Below, one piece after another: positions 2,582 to 25,870 of a DNA stretch of 64,000 nt. Source of the DNA: a virus; the IMG/VR virus record IMGVR_UViG_3300050505_000066, positions 1,017 to 65,016 of that record. One strand, 5' to 3'. Numbering within the stretch: the first letter of the stretch is position 1; each line of letters opens with the position of its first letter. A model generated the notes under the pieces. The model worked only from the letters and a program-made list of their open reading frames with translations. It ran no database searches and was not told where the DNA came from. The position numbers were made by a program, and so were the translations under genes.

Positions 2582-5500
2582 TAAGAATTTGCCCTATTCA
2601 TTTCAGTTCCAGCATCCGAGGCAAGGTAAGAGAAATTATAAATTCTCATATCTTGATTTAAATCGACACTAATGTCGTCTGAAATAAAAACTTTTTCAAT
2701 TTGAAGTTCAATTCCTTGTTTAGACCAATTTTGATCTGAAACTAATAAATCTCCTGTCAAAGTAGAAAAATATTTTGTATCAATCAATGTAACTGGTTCG
2801 GAAATTCCTGATCCTCTAACTCCAATTGAAATCGTACCATCATCAAATACAAGTGTAACATCTCCCGTAAATTCAACTGGTTGAGAAAGAGTTATCACAC
2901 TATCACTAAAAATTGATTCAACAATTGTTTGAGGAGGAATTCCAACTCCCTTTACAAATGTTCCAATGAGCATTTGTCCAAAAAAATGATTTGAAGAGAT
3001 GTCGGCTGAACCCGAGACAAGAGTACAAGGAATTTGAGTATATGTTCCTAAAGCATCATACAAAATATAAGTTCGTTGAACTTGTGTATCTTGATCATAT
3101 CCTGCTGGATAAATTTTTCTAGTAATAATTGATGGTGCAATAGGAGCTGAAGCAAGGATATCATTTTCATCATGAACTTGATATGTAGATGGTTGAATTA
3201 TACCATTATCTTCAATATATACAGTTCCGTTCGTTTGATGTCCAGTTAATAAATAAGGAACGCCCCCTAATTTTGCTGAGGCCGCTGATCTTGCAGAAAT
3301 TGAAAGTGGGCCGGTAACTGGAAGGAATGTTCCATTTTTAATTTTATCAGCACTATAACTGAAAACTATTGCTCGTGTATTTTTTGTATGAGTACCAGCA
3401 GCATTTTTGGGACAATAATAAAAAACTAACCATTTTTCACGTGGATACACTCGAAGAATTGATGTGAAAAGGGCGTCTGTATTTACGAGGTCTTCAATTT
3501 TAATATCAAGATTAAACGGTCGTGTGGAAACTCCATCTGTATAATTAAATCCATTATATGAAACATAACCGCATACAACTCCTGATCCTTTAAGATCGAA
3601 AAGAGTTGCGGCAAGGGGACCAACAATACCGTGATCGACCACTATATCCTCGTGGGCGATTCCTTTACCAAAGTCAGCATCCACTTCAGTAGGAAGGTAA
3701 TTAACTCGTTTAATTGAATCTCGCATCCCAACTAAAAGAATTTGACCAATTCGTCTTATATATGTAATAATATCTTTATTTTTAGAATCAAAAACAATTT
3801 TATAAGGAGCTGGGAAGGATTCTGGAGCACCAGCAATTGAATATCTTAAAGTTGAAGGATTTGTTACATCATTTAAAACAAGTGATCCTTGGAAAATATC
3901 TCCTGTTGAAGCAGAAGGAATAATGAAATTAGCAGGATCACTAACTGTAGTTCCAATTTGTGAACGATATGTAACAACTTGGTAAGGAGGTCCGTCTAGA
4001 TTAATACTACCGTCTGCAGCGGAAGCTCCAGTGTAATAAACACGAACAGCCACATAATCAACATCAAGTTCTTGGTTACTCGCTGTGTAACTTTTTTGAA
4101 TAATAACACGGAGAGTTCCAATTTGCACAGGAGTCCATGAAATCCCCCATTTTTCAAATTGTCCTCCCCAAATTTTAGGGTAAAAAAACCAATATGTAGA
4201 AGCACCGAAATTTCGATTACTAGAAGTTGCTCCTGGCCCTTGATCTAACCAAATCCAATATCCAGCTTGTGTTCCAAGACCAGGAGAACGACTCACAACT
4301 TTAACTTCAATTCCAGTTACAGTATATGTGTTCCAGGGAGCACCAGTCAAGAATCCAAAAGAAGAAAGAGCGTTTTCTTCTGATTGCCCACTCCCCGAGG
4401 TACCAAAAGCAAAAACACCACCAATAGTTGTAAAACCTGATGGATTTGTAAATTGAGGAAGAGCGTCTGGACCTGCGCCTGTAACTGTTGGAAGAAGATA
4501 ATCTTGATAAGTATTCGTAAATTTTATATCAAGAGAAGTGTTTTCAATCGAAGGTTTTGCAATTCGTTTAAATGTTGCAGCAGGAGGCATGTTTGTTGGA
4601 TCAGGATAAGCGGCTTTTCCTGGTCCAATAAAAGACATATAAACACCCCAATTTGTTGCTCTATTCTTTCCATTAGTTCCATCATTTGTAATTATTGGAA
4701 AAGTGATTCTTACAAATTGATTTGATACATCTGTAATTGAAACAACAACAGCTTGTCCACCATTTGCAACATATCCTGCTTCGACATCATTAATATTGGA
4801 ATTATCTGATAATAAAATTTCTGTAATAAGAAACCAGTAATATCCAATCCCTAAAGTTGCAGACCAAGCTGGTCCTGCTTGAACTGAAACTGTTGGAGCA
4901 TTAGAAATTGGTTGAAGACCTGCTGGACGCATAATCAATGTTTCAGGAGCATTTGTTCCTGAAAATTGTTTCCAAAATAATCTATTTACTGTTCCTACAC
5001 GAGGTAATACAAAAAATGTACTTTGCCATTGAACAATATCAAGGAGTTCTTTTCCAGTATCTGACATTGAAAGAGCAATTCCAGCATCAAAAATCAATGT
5101 TACTGTTGCACTAGCTGTTGCAGCTTGAGAAAGTGTAATTTGAGTATCAGAATTAACGGTTAGGATGTAAGTTCCTGCTGAAATTCCTGGACCAGAAACT
5201 TTTACACCAACAAGCATATTTAAAAATGATCCAGCCGGGGCAGTTACAGTTGCATTAAGATTAATGGTAATACAATTAGCAATAGTTCCTGGTCCTGTAA
5301 TAACTGAAAATGTTCCTGTTAATGCTGTAAAATCACTTTTATAAAGATTTGAGGTTGTTCCATTTCCTTGGGGCCATGCAATTAATTGATCTGTATTTTG
5401 ATCAAATGTTAATTGAACAAGACCTTTAAGTCCCCCTGATAAAGGAGTTACATTATAAACAGTTCGGCCAGGAGCACGTTGAATAGATGGATTTTTATCT

Positions 5501-6558: not shown

Positions 6559-7821
6559 TTATCTCCTAGCGAGAACTATACGTGGATTTAACTCGCTTTT
6601 TTGTCGATCTTTGAGTTCAGTATAAAAATCATATAAAGCTGGAATAGTTTTTTCTGGTGTTCGATTCTCTAAAACCCATTTTTTAGCATTTTGTGAAATT
6701 TTAGTTCGAAGGTCCTTATTTTCAATTAATTGTCCAAGTTTTTGAACAAATTCTTCTGGAGAATTAAAAAGTAATCCAGTTTTTCCATCTTTAATCTCAA
6801 AATACGGTTCTGTATTAGCTGCTAAAGTTGCTTCAGGTTGATTCCAAATAGAACCTTCGTACCATTTAATAGCTGATTTACAACGATTAAAAGCATTATT
6901 AGCAAGAGGACAAAGATTAATATCAATATTTAAAAGTCCACGTTTAAGTTTGTAAGCTTGGTAATGAGTCCAAGGATGAAATTCTACAATTTCATCAGGA
7001 ATCATATCATGAACCCAATCAAACCATTCCCCGAAAATTACCCATGTAATTTGATTTTTATATTTTTGGGATATTTCTCGAACTGCCTCGCGGAGGGGAT
7101 ACCAATCAACATAATGAGACATTGATCCTTGCCAGAGAATTCGAATTTTAGAGGGGTCTTTTCTGGCTACATCATAAAATTCATAATGAGAAAGATCAAC
7201 GGAATTCGGAAATACGTAAGTATTTGGTTGGCCTATAACTTCTTTAAAGTATGAAGCAAGAGCGGGAGTCGAAACAGTTGCTCCATGACATCTTTGAATA
7301 AGTTCATGACGAACTTTCATTTGATGTAAATTACGGGCTATGTCAAATTGAAGACCATTTCCAGTTGTTACTTTATCTTCCCAAAGCACCCGTCTTTCAT
7401 GATCAGCATCTTCCCATTCAAGAGTATTTCCAGGTTCAAGTAATTTTGCATCTGGATATGAACGAATTCCTAAATAGGAAAACGTGAAGTTCATTGGATG
7501 AACAAAATCTGTATTATCATCAACATCATAAAGAACTAAAGGAGGAATTCTAAGAATATCATCTGCTGTTTTATTTGCTTTTATATCTCGAATAGTATTA
7601 ACTTGATGTAATGCTCCTTCTCCTCCTACTGAGTATAAAATAGCCACATCAGATGTTAACATAGCTCGAAGGGCTTCATCATCATTACTACCATCATCTT
7701 GATAACATATACCAAGTCCCATTTTATGAAAATTCATCATAGGAAGGTCTAGACGATAGTACTGACAAGCGTTCGGATTTCGTGCTCGATTTGTAGCCCA
7801 AATATAAAGTGGTTCTGACAT
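6559..7821 (-). CDS. Glycosyltransferase (GT-B/GT4-like)
   Basis: Motifs 'YYRLDLPM', 'LYDVDDN', 'ILWQGS' and 'DINLCPLANNAFNRCKSAIKWYE' typical of phage GT4-like enzymes. Confidence 0.85.
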   Translation of the reverse strand: MSEPLYIWATNRARNPNACQYYRLDLPMMNFHKMGLGICYQDDGSNDDEALRAMLTSDVAILYSVGGEGALHQVNTIRDIKANKTADDILRIPPLVLYDVDDNTDFVHPMNFTFSYLGIRSYPDAKLLEPGNTLEWEDADHERRVLWEDKVTTGNGLQFDIARNLHQMKVRHELIQRCHGATVSTPALASYFKEVIGQPNTYVFPNSVDLSHYEFYDVARKDPSKIRILWQGSMSHYVDWYPLREAVREISQKYKNQITWVIFGEWFDWVHDMIPDEIVEFHPWTHYQAYKLKRGLLNIDINLCPLANNAFNRCKSAIKWYEGSIWNQPEATLAANTEPYFEIKDGKTGLLFNSPEEFVQKLGQLIENKDLRTKISQNAKKWVLENRTPEKTIPALYDFYTELKDRQKSELNPRIVLARR

Positions 7822-22008: not shown

Positions 22009-22067
22009 ATAGGTACATGTGTCCGCGAGAGAAAACGCGGATGCGGAGACTGTCAAAAAATTGGACA

Positions 22068-22416
22068 GACTAGGCGCATGGTACACTTGTAATGAAAGGA
22101 TACAGGTAAATCCATGCCAAAGGTAGCATTCACAGCGGATGATGTTGCTGCGGCGAATCGTGCCGACAAGCATCAAGTCAAGGTAAACAACGCCTATGTC
22201 AAGGCGATGCGTTCACAGGCCGATGCTCTGTTGGGACAGGGAATCAAGCCGGGTTCAAAGGACTACGCCGAGAAGATCGATCCCATCCTAGCGGATATCG
22301 GCGCTACGGATTGGCTTACGACACGGATCGAGGAGCGTATCTCCCATCGTGTTCCCGGTGCGGTCAAGGTCAAGGGAAGCAATCCCTTTCGCTCGTAATC
22401 CGCCATGCGCCTAGTC
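22068..22416. repeat. 14-bp perfect inverted repeat flanking the first early gene
   Basis: GACTAGGCGCATGG (22068-81) and CCATGCGCCTAGTC (22403-16). Confidence 0.9.
22114..22398 (+). CDS. First early gene, hypothetical (GC-rich)
   Basis: Clean ORF with RBS-like sequence upstream; codon usage is more GC-rich than the rest of the genome. Confidence 0.7.
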   Translation: MPKVAFTADDVAAANRADKHQVKVNNAYVKAMRSQADALLGQGIKPGSKDYAEKIDPILADIGATDWLTTRIEERISHRVPGAVKVKGSNPFRS

Positions 22417-22420
22417 AAAT

Positions 22421-22559
22421 GATATGCCGAAATATTCCCGGTATAGGCCCGCCTAATCAGCGGGGCAATAGGATTCGGAGTGATTCTCCGACGAACCCAG
22501 TTATTTACTGGGACCGGGAATATCTACCAGCTTGACATGCTGGTACTGATGAGGCTGTC
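22421..22559 (+). ncRNA. Type II hammerhead ribozyme with a multi-hairpin insertion in stem III; predicted cleavage 3' of C22524
   Basis: GCC-GAAA (22426-32); stem III ATATTCCCGGT/ACCGGGAATAT; AUC triplet; stem I TACCAGC/GCTGGTA; CTGATGA (22546-52); stem II GGC-TGTC pairs with GATA-T-GCC. All core residues are present. Confidence 0.9.
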
Positions 22560-22589
22560 TATCGTATCGTATCATCGGAGGATCATATC

Positions 22590-22787
22590 ATGTCTCGTCG
22601 TAATCCATTCTCTCCATCGTTCACATCAGGTTCTCTTGATGATCTAATCATCAAGAATCGTTGTGAACACGAAACCCACGGTTCTATCTTCGTAGAAGGA
22701 TCGGATTGGCAACAGTGTTCTCTCTGTGGTGAGATGTATTGTCTTGATGACATCACCGAAGTCTTCAATCTCGATTACGCAGGTTAA
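22590..22787 (+). CDS. Small early protein (C/H zinc-binding-like)
   Basis: GGAGG RBS; CEH...CSLC. Confidence 0.6.
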   Translation: MSRRNPFSPSFTSGSLDDLIIKNRCEHETHGSIFVEGSDWQQCSLCGEMYCLDDITEVFNLDYAG

Positions 22788-22916
22788 ATTAGGAACCTTG
22801 TTTTCACGTGATTATCCTGTGAGCCATAAATACCCAAAACATCGCGGGCTAGGCTCGATGGATACGTGGAAATGCAAACAAAGGGTTTCTGATTCTAAGT
22901 CTACGAAGGGAGAAAC

Positions 22917-23111
22917 ATGAGAACGCCAAAACAATCAGCTGACATGATTGGTGTCTTGTATCGAGCAATGAAAACATTTCCTGATCTTCGTCTCTGTCAA
23001 ATCATTTCAAACGCAACAAGATTAGGAGATGTCTTCTACGTAACCGATGATGTTCTCATCGCTCGTCTTCATCAATATATCGAGGATTTCAAGCCACAAT
23101 CCACCATCTAA
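22917..23111 (+). CDS. Small conserved-type phage protein
   Basis: 'FPDLRLCQIISN...DVFYVTDD' pattern seen in many phages; GGGAG RBS. Confidence 0.6.
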   Translation: MRTPKQSADMIGVLYRAMKTFPDLRLCQIISNATRLGDVFYVTDDVLIARLHQYIEDFKPQSTI

Positions 23112-23143
23112 ATCATTCCACGGGGAATGTATTGGTGGAAGAC

Positions 23144-23297
23144 GGAAGGGATAACTAGGTGATCTCTAACAATGCGCTGAACCGAATGCGCTAACAAATG
23201 AGATCATCAAACAGTCTCCGCTGAGACTATACCTAGCACAAGTGACAAGGCTTCTAAGCTATTGTCCGCCATCGGTATACAGATGGTCCCATCTTTC
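23144..23297 (+). ncRNA. Candidate multi-stem structured RNA
   Basis: Nested helices CTAGG/CCTAG, TGATCTC/GAGATCA, AGTCTC/GAGACT, GACAA/TTGTC, GCCATC/GATGGT and GGG/CCC in an intergenic region. Confidence 0.6.
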
Positions 23298-24490
23298 AGG
23301 AGACGACAATGAAAATAATCAAAGCCACACCACTCGACTGGATTCTTTTCATTCTCGCCATCATCGCTCTATTACTATTTGCATCTCACGATCTTCAGCT
23401 TTCATCTTCTGACTCCCATACTCAAACCGTGGAGATTGAACAGTGACAGATGTAATTCTCAAAATCTGTCCAATCTGTAAAGGATATCGACGTTTTCACC
23501 ACATTTGGAATAGCACTACCAAAAAAGGTGATCTTTGTTGTGATGAATGTCTCACCCCACTCAAACCAAAGGAGAAATAATGCTCTATCTTTGGTCCCGC
23601 TGGCATTACATCAAAAGAATTCTCGAAAGGAACACATGAACGGTATTTTTCCTCATCCCTGGGCAGTAAAGCTATTCATAACCGGAATCACAGTTTTCAT
23701 AGTTGGTTATCATGGAAACACAGATACTGAAAAACAACGTGAATTCGGTGGTGCCTGTTTAATCTTTGGATATCTCATGATTCTCATTGGAATTTGGGGA
23801 TGGTAAAAATGAAAACACCCAAACACGTTCGTTTCACCAAATGTCGTAATCCCGGTTGTAACAAGAGGAGACCCCGGCGAGAAGTAAAAGATGATTATGT
23901 ATGTCTCACTGGTGCAAAACGCCGTTGTCCCTACTCCAAATAAGGAGGATTCATGAAGAATTCGTTTCTGATTCTTCTCTGTCTCATTTCAATGGGCTGT
24001 TCACAAAGGAGCAGAGCACCGGCTAATCCATCTTTTGTTGCCTCGCAGGTGTACACAAACAGTGTGTACATACAGCGACCATATCATCATCCCCACAAAG
24101 TTCGTCCTTTGAAAACATGGACTGGAACAATGTGGCTTGACTGGCTCGCTAGAGGCCGAAGAAACTAGGCTCAAACATTCATGGTAAATTATAAATTAAA
24201 TTATTGGAGTAGTTCGCTGGTTTACCCAACTAGCTAACACGGCGAAACCAGGAATAATAATCAACTGGACACTAGCTAGTGACACTAGCCGCTAGAAGAT
24301 TTTATTCTTGGTCATATCCAGTTCGGTACTGGATATCTGACGATGCCAACCGCGAGGGAACAATGGTAGTTAAATGTCCAAACTGTAAAACTCCAATGAC
24401 AATCGGTGCTCCACACGATGATTCTTCACGTTATCAGTATGAGTGTCATTCATGTGGTAAGATAATTCGAATCAGTAAAACCTGGGAATA

Positions 24491-25870
24491 TTGATGCCAA
24501 TTTCAACAGTGGAATTTCGAATGCCCTTTCAGATTCCTATTTTAGATGAACATACATCTATTTTAGGACACAGAAGCTCTGAAAGAATGAGTTGTATTTG
24601 TCCTGAATGTAGACGCCTTTGTCCAAATCAACATTGTCAGTGTAAACAAATTGAGGATTTCATGCCAACAACACCAGTCAATCCATTTCGTAATTTCCTT
24701 TGTCACTATTGTCAGCAAACGAAACCCCCGGAAGAACGTCATATTCCGCCGGCAAGAATTGTTCCTTATAACATGTGCAATGCATGTTTCACACGTCTGA
24801 TCTTTGTTTGTCCAACTTGTCACAATGAAGTTGTTCAAGGAGACAGAACTTCTTTTTCTTACGGTGAAGAACGAATTCAAATATGTCGAGTTTGTTTCAA
24901 TCGCACATATTATTGTTGTGTGAATTGTAATGCCATTAGATCACGAGAACTTCAACCAGGACATTGTGTTTCAGCTAATAGATTGGTTTGTGAAGCTTGT
25001 GTAGAACACTATACAGAATGTGAAAATTGTGGCCGTCTAACTTATCATGACGAAGTGTGTTATGATGATGAAGATGAAGATCACAATCATCCTCTTTGTG
25101 GCAATTGTATGGAGAGACCAAGGCTTCTTATGAGTGACACATTTAATCTCAATCCGTTCCGAAGAAAAGTTGGATTTGAAATCGAATTCTGTTCTCGTGA
25201 TGAACCCAATATCAGAAGCTTTGGTCAAATAAAAGGTGATGGTAGTATCATGCCATCTTCAGGTGATTATGGTTATGAATTTGCCAGCCATATCACTCAA
25301 GGTGACAAACTTTTCGAAATCATTGGAAAGGTTTGTAACCGAATTCGTGCGACAGGCGGTTATGTAAATTCAAGCTGTGGTGTTCATGTTCACCTTGACA
25401 TGAATGGTTCAACTGTAACTCAGAGAAATAACATTACAAGTTGGTGGGGAATCTTTGAAAGAATTTTCTTTGGTATGGTCGCCCCCTCTCGAAGAAACAA
25501 TCAATACACTCGCTCTGTGGGAGACCGATATTCTTCACCAAATGACCGCTACAGAACTCTCAACACTTCAGCATTTTCCAAATTTGGAACATATGAAATT
25601 CGTGTACATCAAGGAAGTCTTTCCTCAGCTAAACTCAAAGATTGGACATTAACTCTTCTGTCCTTCTTCGAAACATTCCAAGATATTCGTCCAACTGAAG
25701 CACGTTTTACTCAAATTCGATCAATGAATGATCGAGAACTCTTGATCTTTTTCTTCCAACAAATCAAGATTCCTCGTCACCTTCAGAAAAACATTCTGAA
25801 GAGAATCCGTACTTACAACGGAAAACCTGAACATCAGTTTCTTAATCTCGCAAAGAAAGGAAAAATTTAA
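24491..25870 (+). CDS. Putative amidoligase (COOH-NH2 ligase type 2) with N-terminal Cys-rich zinc-finger array
   Basis: 'VGFEIEF', 'DGSI', 'GYEFAS', 'SCGVHVHL', 'RYRTLN', 'YEIRVHQGS'; many CxxC pairs in the first ~200 aa. Confidence 0.85.
   Translation: MMPISTVEFRMPFQIPILDEHTSILGHRSSERMSCICPECRRLCPNQHCQCKQIEDFMPTTPVNPFRNFLCHYCQQTKPPEERHIPPARIVPYNMCNACFTRLIFVCPTCHNEVVQGDRTSFSYGEERIQICRVCFNRTYYCCVNCNAIRSRELQPGHCVSANRLVCEACVEHYTECENCGRLTYHDEVCYDDEDEDHNHPLCGNCMERPRLLMSDTFNLNPFRRKVGFEIEFCSRDEPNIRSFGQIKGDGSIMPSSGDYGYEFASHITQGDKLFEIIGKVCNRIRATGGYVNSSCGVHVHLDMNGSTVTQRNNITSWWGIFERIFFGMVAPSRRNNQYTRSVGDRYSSPNDRYRTLNTSAFSKFGTYEIRVHQGSLSSAKLKDWTLTLLSFFETFQDIRPTEARFTQIRSMNDRELLIFFFQQIKIPRHLQKNILKRIRTYNGKPEHQFLNLAKKGKI

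Follow-up and report, generated by a model that had tools for sequence, protein, structure and literature searches.

The stretch of DNA analysed here (the window, 64,000 nt) is nearly all of a complete 65.6-kb IMG/VR virus record, IMGVR_UViG_3300050505_000066. Minus-strand structural genes extend to ~21.5 kb and are followed by a long plus-strand early region of small open reading frames (ORFs), in which a 197-nt gap (23112-23308, +) lies between ORF 22917-23111 (64 aa) and ORF 23309-23446, the latter encoding a 45-aa hydrophobic (membrane) peptide. Both ORFs are complete, the upstream one ending in TAA (23109-11) and the downstream one having its own Shine-Dalgarno sequence (SD) and ATG. An earlier note on this DNA had described 23101-23305 as an unassigned, multi-helix RNA with a group I-like core, lying in a non-coding stretch and reaching the ribosome-binding site of the downstream gene. 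The gap contains no credible ORF of at least 20 aa, the SD is AGGAG at 23298-23302, and the stretch is intergenic and non-coding as described; the core has a different architecture. On the comparison of three sequence copies, the element (23141-23297, +) is a member of a previously undescribed conserved four-way-junction RNA motif that SU10-like soil phages carry in their early polycistronic transcripts.

A four-way-junction RNA in the early region

The segment 23101-23305 (+) folds with a minimum free energy (MFE) of -65.8 kcal/mol (z = -4.51), and none of 200 shuffled sequences was as stable, in agreement with the multi-helix fold first proposed; the opposite strand reaches a z of only -2.55. 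When 200-nt segments of both strands were compared across the whole window, this one ranked 12th of 2554 strand-windows (top 0.5%); it is a folding outlier, though not the only one in the window. All arms of the structure, together with a hairpin upstream of them, form with pair probabilities of 0.8-1.0.

We built a covariance model from the window sequence alone (R1) and, with filters off, it identified two further copies in a distant relative, L061, a 56-kb Logan contig whose full early region was fetched (22 kb) and whose large terminase subunit (TerL) is 66% identical to that of the window phage. These are L061a (4868-4997, -; 17.1 bits, E 0.0047) and L061b (6960-7053, -; 12.6 bits, E 0.08), both intergenic and on the early strand. 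The three natural variants span 94-162 nt, L061b being the compact form of 94 nt, and all three share the four-way junction P1...GGG-AUAA-P2-ACAAGU-P3-C-P4-CCC...P1, in which GGG-AUAA, ACAAGU, C, GC..GU and CCC occur in the same order. The core measures ~90 nt, with P4 stacked directly on P1; its junction nucleotides are invariant and its stems vary. The strict motif GGGATAA..ACAAGT..GTCCC is present at only three places in about 0.76 Mb of related loci searched on both strands, namely window 23148-23290, L061 4877-4989 (-) and L061 6970-7045 (-), each time on the early-gene strand. The proteins flanking the three copies are unrelated to each other, which indicates that the RNA itself is what is conserved. 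Downstream of the window copy lies the gene for the 45-aa membrane peptide, compared with a 64-aa acidic protein downstream of L061a; these two copies stand directly upstream of an SD and ATG, and L061b is ~270 nt from the next ORF. The P1 helix of L061a (CCCCC/GGGGG) is followed by UUUUAU. Further copies in five other assemblies and in Logan contigs are 100% identical to the window copy and, having zero differences, are uninformative on variation. The parts of the window copy are as follows.

23101-23138 (+): upstream hairpin H0, CCACCA...UGGUGG around CAUUCC-ACGG-GGAAUG; present in the MFE fold, pair probabilities 0.91-1.0
23141-23150 (+): P1 5' strand, GA.GGA.GGG, pairing with 23288-23297; outer pairs covary
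23151-23154 (+): J1/2, AUAA, which with the preceding GGG makes up the GGGAUAA invariant in the window, L061a and L061b
23155-23160 (+): P2 5' strand, CUAGGU, pairing with ACCUAG at 23231-36
23161-23230 (+): insert inside P2 (arms A' and B), pair probabilities 0.85-1.0; lineage-specific
23161-66 and 23200-05 (+): arm A', GAUCUC/GAGAUC, with an inner GCGC hairpin at 23174-91
23213-28 (+): arm B, AGUCUC-CGCU-GAGACU, within the P2 insert
23214-23219 (+): candidate anti-SD GUCUCC in arm B, a perfect complement of the SD region GGAGAC (23299-304)
23231-23236 (+): P2 3' strand, ACCUAG, pairing with CUAGGU at 23155-23160
23238-23243 (+): J2/3, ACAAGU, invariant in all three copies
23244-23266 (+): P3 hairpin, GACAAGGCU-UCUA-AGCUAUUGUC, pair probabilities 0.91-1.0
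23267 (+): invariant C linking P3 and P4, from the three-copy comparison
23268-23287 (+): P4 hairpin, GCCAUC-GGUAUACA-GAUGGU; 100% of alignment cells paired, three pairs covary
23288-23297 (+): P1 3' strand, CCC.UCU.UC, from the MFE fold, pair probabilities and three-copy comparison; ends 1 nt before the SD
23298-23311 (+): SD AGGAG (23298-302) and ATG (23309-11), from the sequence and the ORF list

As MAFFT alignments of the copies were not structure-consistent, base pairs were counted in a model-based alignment of the three copies (A4). In this alignment 95% of the cells are paired, with both sides altered in 17 of 27 pairs; all of 500 shuffles fell short of this, and controls in which the structure was slid gave 1-5 such pairs. 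Within P3, 8 of the 10 pairs differ on both sides among the three copies. An independent run of RNAalifold predicted P1, P3 and P4 with 15 of 23 pairs compensatory, and the unconstrained MFE structure of L061a is the same four-way junction (z -3.96). With three sequences and a model-fitted alignment, this is suggestive rather than statistical proof that P1-P4 have been kept through compensatory changes. The inner GGG of P1 (23148-50) and its CCC partner are invariant in all three copies, as is the G.U wobble that closes P4, a hairpin that abuts the P1 3' strand with no linker; this wobble and several other G.U pairs point to the early sense (+) strand as the one that folds. G23242 can also pair with the invariant C23267, bulging U23243, and this G-C pair is both invariant and present in the MFE fold. 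The loops of P4 differ, being GGUAUACA in the window and UUGCAA and CCUAUCA in the L061 copies.

P2 is a variable arm. The window has CUAGGU/ACCUAG for this helix, L061a has ACCUAGC/GCUAGGU and L061b has UCCUG/CAGGA, enclosing 71 nt, 44 nt and a plain 7-nt hairpin loop, respectively. The window fold containing P2 lies 0.7 kcal/mol above the MFE. Within the window insert, the two internal-loop strands of arm A' are near-identical (UAACAAU and UAACAAAU). The candidate anti-SD of arm B was assessed by constraining the fold to the GUCUCC:GGAGAC helix, giving -65.7 compared with -67.6 kcal/mol (1.9 above the MFE) and a pair probability of 0.05; neither L061 copy keeps the complementarity, which could plausibly have arisen by chance (expectation about 5%). 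On the same strand, GCGGAGACUGU (22043-22053) is perfectly complementary over 11 nt to ACAGUCUCCGC (23211-23221) in arm B, a match at chance level, with ~1 such pair expected in the 3.2-kb region. The H0 hairpin recovered here is the CCACCA/UGGUGG hairpin around CAUUCC/GGAAUG already drawn in the earlier note (pair probabilities 0.9-1.0). Its 5' arm overlaps the last codons and TAA of ORF 22917-23111, no U-tract follows it, and it lies outside the conserved motif, with no counterpart in the L061 copies.

These data also bear on the group I-like core, whose P7 had been drawn between GAGACUA (23223-29) and UGGUCC (23284-89). This pairing has a probability of 0.00, and the best fold containing it reaches -58.5 compared with -67.6 kcal/mol, a cost of 9 kcal/mol. 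Its 3' strand is already engaged in P4 and P1, both of which covary, and the proposed P7 is therefore not real. Its 5' strand lies in arm B, absent from the two homologues, and both this strand and the stem described as P4/P5-like fall inside the P2 insert; since the insert differs among copies, that stem is lineage-specific. The pairing of CTAGG (23155-59) with CCTAG (23232-36) was correctly recognised and covaries in the relatives, but the helix is P2 and not a P3-like strand. Comparison with Rfam and its group I models produced no match; homologues with covariation do exist, and they support a different fold. The roles suggested in the earlier note (a new ribozyme, a switch at the RBS or an antitermination RNA) would accordingly be based on comparative evidence for that other fold.

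Rfam 15 (4227 families) was searched at gathering thresholds and at E<=10 with 22700-23700 and with 23095-23315. The window copy had no match at E<=10, including when the 221-nt stretch was searched alone, so the RNA is indeed unassigned; neither L061 copy had a match, and searches of the window, the element, the hammerhead gaps described below and the L061 copies returned only tRNAs and noise. No match was found by blastn in the INPHARED phages, nor in 46 TerL relatives in IMG/VR by blastn, nhmmer or R1 with default filters or filters off. A three-sequence covariance model (R3) scored its own three copies at 78-82 bits, had no further match in 0.70 Mb of loci and 0 matches in 32 whole IMG/VR relatives and, with filters off, gave only noise on L060, L109, L110 and L014; L060 is the nearest full relative, and the motif is absent there. 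Pattern scans of IMG/VR gave nothing or chance matches only, those of JGI metagenomes and 185,579 GTDB genomes gave no further member, and the motif was not found in the amidoligase-neighbour loci L052-L054. A single-copy model from the compact L061b (R2) is unspecific, scoring tRNA-shaped RNAs and missing the two copies with inserts. One syntenic candidate, L014 2741-2921 (-), scored 10.1 bits and was rejected because chance matches scored equally high and R3 did not match it. The surrounding L014 2722-2959 (-) has a strong fold (z -3.6) at the syntenic position, with a gene for a tiny hydrophobic peptide next downstream; a 78-aa ORF overlaps this stretch, which is not a member of the motif. 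The motif is absent from Rfam 15 and, on three copies, is best described as a new structured-RNA motif in a known kind of setting.

Locus and hammerhead neighbourhood

The window phage is an SU10-like soil phage. Its nearest full-length relatives have portal, capsid and adaptor genes of the SU10 type; rhizosphere metagenomes are the source of all DNA runs holding the sequence, and no RNA runs are listed among the public runs that contain it. The phage has no close kin, the best TerL homologue in a set of about 15 billion proteins having 69% identity. Homologues of the early genes beside the element are absent or merely distant elsewhere, and the early genes of the 46 IMG/VR relatives are unrelated to those of the window phage. 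The 64-aa product of the upstream ORF is a member of a widespread family of complete ~60-aa proteins (56 representatives at E<=1e-3) that carries no Pfam or PHROG name; in the three other contexts examined no RNA gap lies behind its homologues, the next genes abutting them. Three short contigs obtained independently from ENA, JGI and Logan (L003, L004 and L005) share an end base at ~23346, 38 nt into ORF 23309, suggesting that a junction varying among strains, or a break in the assembly, lies shortly downstream of the element. The adjacent gap 22788-22916 (+) is predicted to fold (-37.1 kcal/mol, z -2.94) as one extended hairpin with few interruptions, closer in appearance to a processing site of the RNase III type than to a branched RNA. 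Promoter-like sites occur at the level of shuffled sequence, with no promoter or terminator site listed inside the element, and there are no notable repeats at the DNA level.

The element lies between two type II hammerhead ribozymes, which a heuristic scan placed at 22546 and 24337 as the only hammerheads of the window region.

22421-22559 (+): HH1, type II hammerhead with its core at 22546
24241-24352 (+): HH2, probable second type II hammerhead, in gap 24169-24363
L025 14378; L026 16166 and 17196; L039 16666 (reverse-complement coordinates): hammerheads of relatives

HH1 was re-read here and stands. It consists of GCC-GAAA, an 11-bp stem III with a three-hairpin insert, C17 at 22524, a stem I hairpin and CUGAUGA followed by GGC, and it has a loop I/3'-tail pseudoknot (GACA:UGUC) of the kind described for type II hammerheads by Perreault et al. 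2011 (PMC3088659). HH2, noticed in this analysis, is probably a second such ribozyme judging by its parts. GGC-GAAA (24241-47) is followed by an 11-bp stem III that holds an inserted hairpin, then by C17 (24313), the stem I hairpin (24314-36) and CUGACGA (24337-43), after which come an extra U and GCC. Its loop I CGGU can pair with ACCG at 24349-52 as a type II-typical pseudoknot, and the extra U after A9, before stem II, recurs in one hammerhead of L026. Rfam misses both HH1 and HH2, which have large inserts. If both hammerheads are active, cutting after 22524 and after 24313 would release a 1.79-kb RNA carrying the element.

Type II hammerheads with a long stem III were also found by the heuristic scan on the early strand of L025, L026 (two) and L039. 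The 22 kb fetched from L061 holds no hammerheads and instead has the two motif copies, one of which begins 36 nt past the first early gene, the position that HH1 occupies in the window. The motif thus fills the same intercistronic niche as type II hammerheads in this phage group. The three-hairpin domain in stem III of HH1 (22436-22519) was scored by R2 at 23.4 bits (E 9e-4), and it has the same 7-nt hairpin loop as L061b, CUAAUCA; the motif may be distantly related to the HH1 stem III domain. In both RNAs the loop AUCA is complementary to the loop UGAU of the next hairpin, making a kissing-loop contact possible. R2 also scores a genuine tRNA at 21.8 bits and, taken with its score on the HH1 domain, this indicates that the shape of the motif is cloverleaf-like. 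The early region of L061 encodes a tRNA of its own at 3455-3531 (-), with the anticodon loop CUUAUAA (anticodon UAU, Ile).

Possible functions of the element

We tentatively favour, at somewhat less than even confidence, a module acting at the RNA level to punctuate or process the early mRNA. The fold would be cut by itself or by a host structure-specific RNase recognising its cloverleaf-like shape; alternatively, it would act as a protective 5' structure. In either case the downstream cistron, here that of the 45-aa membrane peptide, would gain its own 5' end, stability and translation rate.

The fold, its conservation with covariation, its strand, its niche and the lack of any database match are observations, whereas the processing of the element and the agent responsible are what we infer. 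Several points weigh against this proposal. Only three copies are known, from two phages, and pairs were counted on an alignment that had been fitted to a structure model. L061b stands ~270 nt from an ORF while the other two copies abut an SD, so the link to a downstream cistron is not uniform. The motif has no T-loop consensus, no 3' CCA and no tRNA call from ARAGORN or Rfam, which makes recognition by RNase P only an analogy. Its absence from the 32 related virus records and from L060 means that it is dispensable for the phage group. Finally, the invariant junction fits a ligand- or protein-binding pocket equally well.

This last point leads to a riboswitch-like or protein-binding regulatory domain, which we consider possible though on the improbable side. 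GGGAUAA, ACAAGU, the linker C and the G.U wobble would form a pocket at the junction, and binding there would stabilise P1. Output in the window would be access to the SD, as P1 ends 1 nt before AGGAG and the GUCUCC:GGAGAC helix would hide it; in L061a it would be the terminator-like P1 helix with the UUUU that follows. The concentration of conserved nucleotides in the junction, with a peripheral arm free to vary, is the usual pattern of an aptamer, and the placement of two of three copies directly upstream of SD and ATG, the SD-sequestering conformer only 1.9 kcal/mol above the MFE and the UUUUAU that P1 of L061a precedes all agree with such a role. However, the genes downstream of the window copy and L061a are unrelated, L061b has no adjacent gene, and the anti-SD complementarity is not conserved and has a chance of ~5% of arising at random. 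No known riboswitch class in Rfam matches, and no candidate ligand or binding protein can be named.

A wider formulation, that the motif is a new catalytic or ligand-sensing RNA class, appears doubtful. It would be either a self-cleaving ribozyme that replaces hammerheads in phage early operons or an aptamer with three outputs: access to the SD in the window, a P1 resembling a terminator in L061a, and, in HH1, a related domain within stem III. Were the aptamer version true, HH1 would be a natural allosteric ribozyme. With both hammerheads active, the 1.79-kb RNA carrying the element would have ends that the phage's own RtcB could join.

The catalytic version, a sharper form of the processing proposal in which a new self-cleaving ribozyme class takes the place of hammerheads in early operons, is unlikely on the present evidence. 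Related phages have type II hammerheads in this niche, one L061 copy sits at the HH1 position, and a ~90-nt core with an invariant junction and variable stems would suit a ribozyme; twister-sister, pistol and hatchet came from such shared contexts (PMC6765202). Against this, the motif has only three copies, cleavage itself is hypothetical and cannot be assigned to a site, and most conserved motifs found near ribozymes are not ribozymes.

It is very unlikely that the early transcript releases the element as a small RNA acting on its own, such as a decoy or cofactor of cloverleaf-like shape connected with the tRNA and RNA-repair genes of the phage. The cloverleaf-like shape, with the R2 score of 21.8 bits for tRNA, would accord with it, and cleavage by the two flanking hammerheads would give the 1.79-kb RNA a 5'-OH and a 2',3'-cyclic phosphate end. 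However, no promoter or terminator delimits such an RNA, P1 abuts the SD, T-loop, D-loop and anticodon features are missing, and the link to RtcB is a co-occurrence in one genome only. A group I-like ribozyme core or degenerate group I intron can be set aside as next to impossible, for although a 6-bp pairing with a bulged A (23223-29/23284-89) can be drawn in the order P3-P4/5-P7-P3'-P8-P7', that P7 is excluded energetically and by the covarying helices, no Rfam family including group I introns matches at E<=10, and the flanking ORFs are complete with no gene interrupted.

Structured RNAs with an invariant junction and covarying stems usually have a specific job, and hammerhead slots in early transcripts are the kind of context that has yielded new ribozyme classes before. 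The motif is in this sense a concrete candidate for a new ribozyme or regulatory class, within a sequence-based case of three copies from two uncultured soil phages. Cleavage of the motif, by itself or by another agent, would add a new element to the ways in which phages split their early mRNAs into units under separate control, and binding of a ligand or protein would make it a phage regulatory RNA of a new kind.

Comparison with known RNA systems

RNase III hairpins between the early genes of phage T7 create separate, stabilised mRNAs and are long, near-continuous duplexes. The element resembles them as a structured spacer between early cistrons and differs from them in branching at a junction and in having no helix longer than 9 bp. 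With group I introns (RF00028) it shares only a size of about 200 nt and one helix that was labelled P3; a P7 G-binding site, a P4-P6 domain, a P1 of the intron type, splice sites and an interrupted gene are all lacking.

The likeness to tRNA is one of architecture. Both have a four-way junction with three tRNA-sized hairpins, and P4 abuts P1 as the T arm abuts the acceptor stem. In contrast, the linkers of the motif are 4, 6 and 1 nt compared with 2, 1 and 4-5 in tRNA, and the motif has no T-loop or D-loop consensus, anticodon loop or CCA; ARAGORN found nothing in 22300-24500, and the Rfam tRNA model did not match. Four-way-junction riboswitch aptamers such as SAM-I are similar in having an invariant junction, variable peripheral stems and a place in the 5' leader beside an SD or U-tract. 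They are set apart by the lack of an Rfam riboswitch match and of a conserved class of downstream genes for the motif.

Among the self-cleaving RNAs, twister, twister-sister, pistol, hatchet, HDV-like, hairpin, glmS and VS had no Rfam match in any of the three copies, a search that misses the hammerheads here too. New self-cleaving classes (twister-sister, pistol and hatchet) have been found through shared context (PMC6765202). The closest parallel in setting is with the type II hammerheads of Perreault et al. 2011 (PMC3088659), from which the element differs in having no CUGANGA or GAAA core in 23101-23305 and in its own conserved nucleotides and junction. Like them, it occupies intercistronic gaps of phage early operons, sometimes with several elements per transcript, and the presence of several ribozymes within phage-type polycistronic RNAs is documented in the same study.

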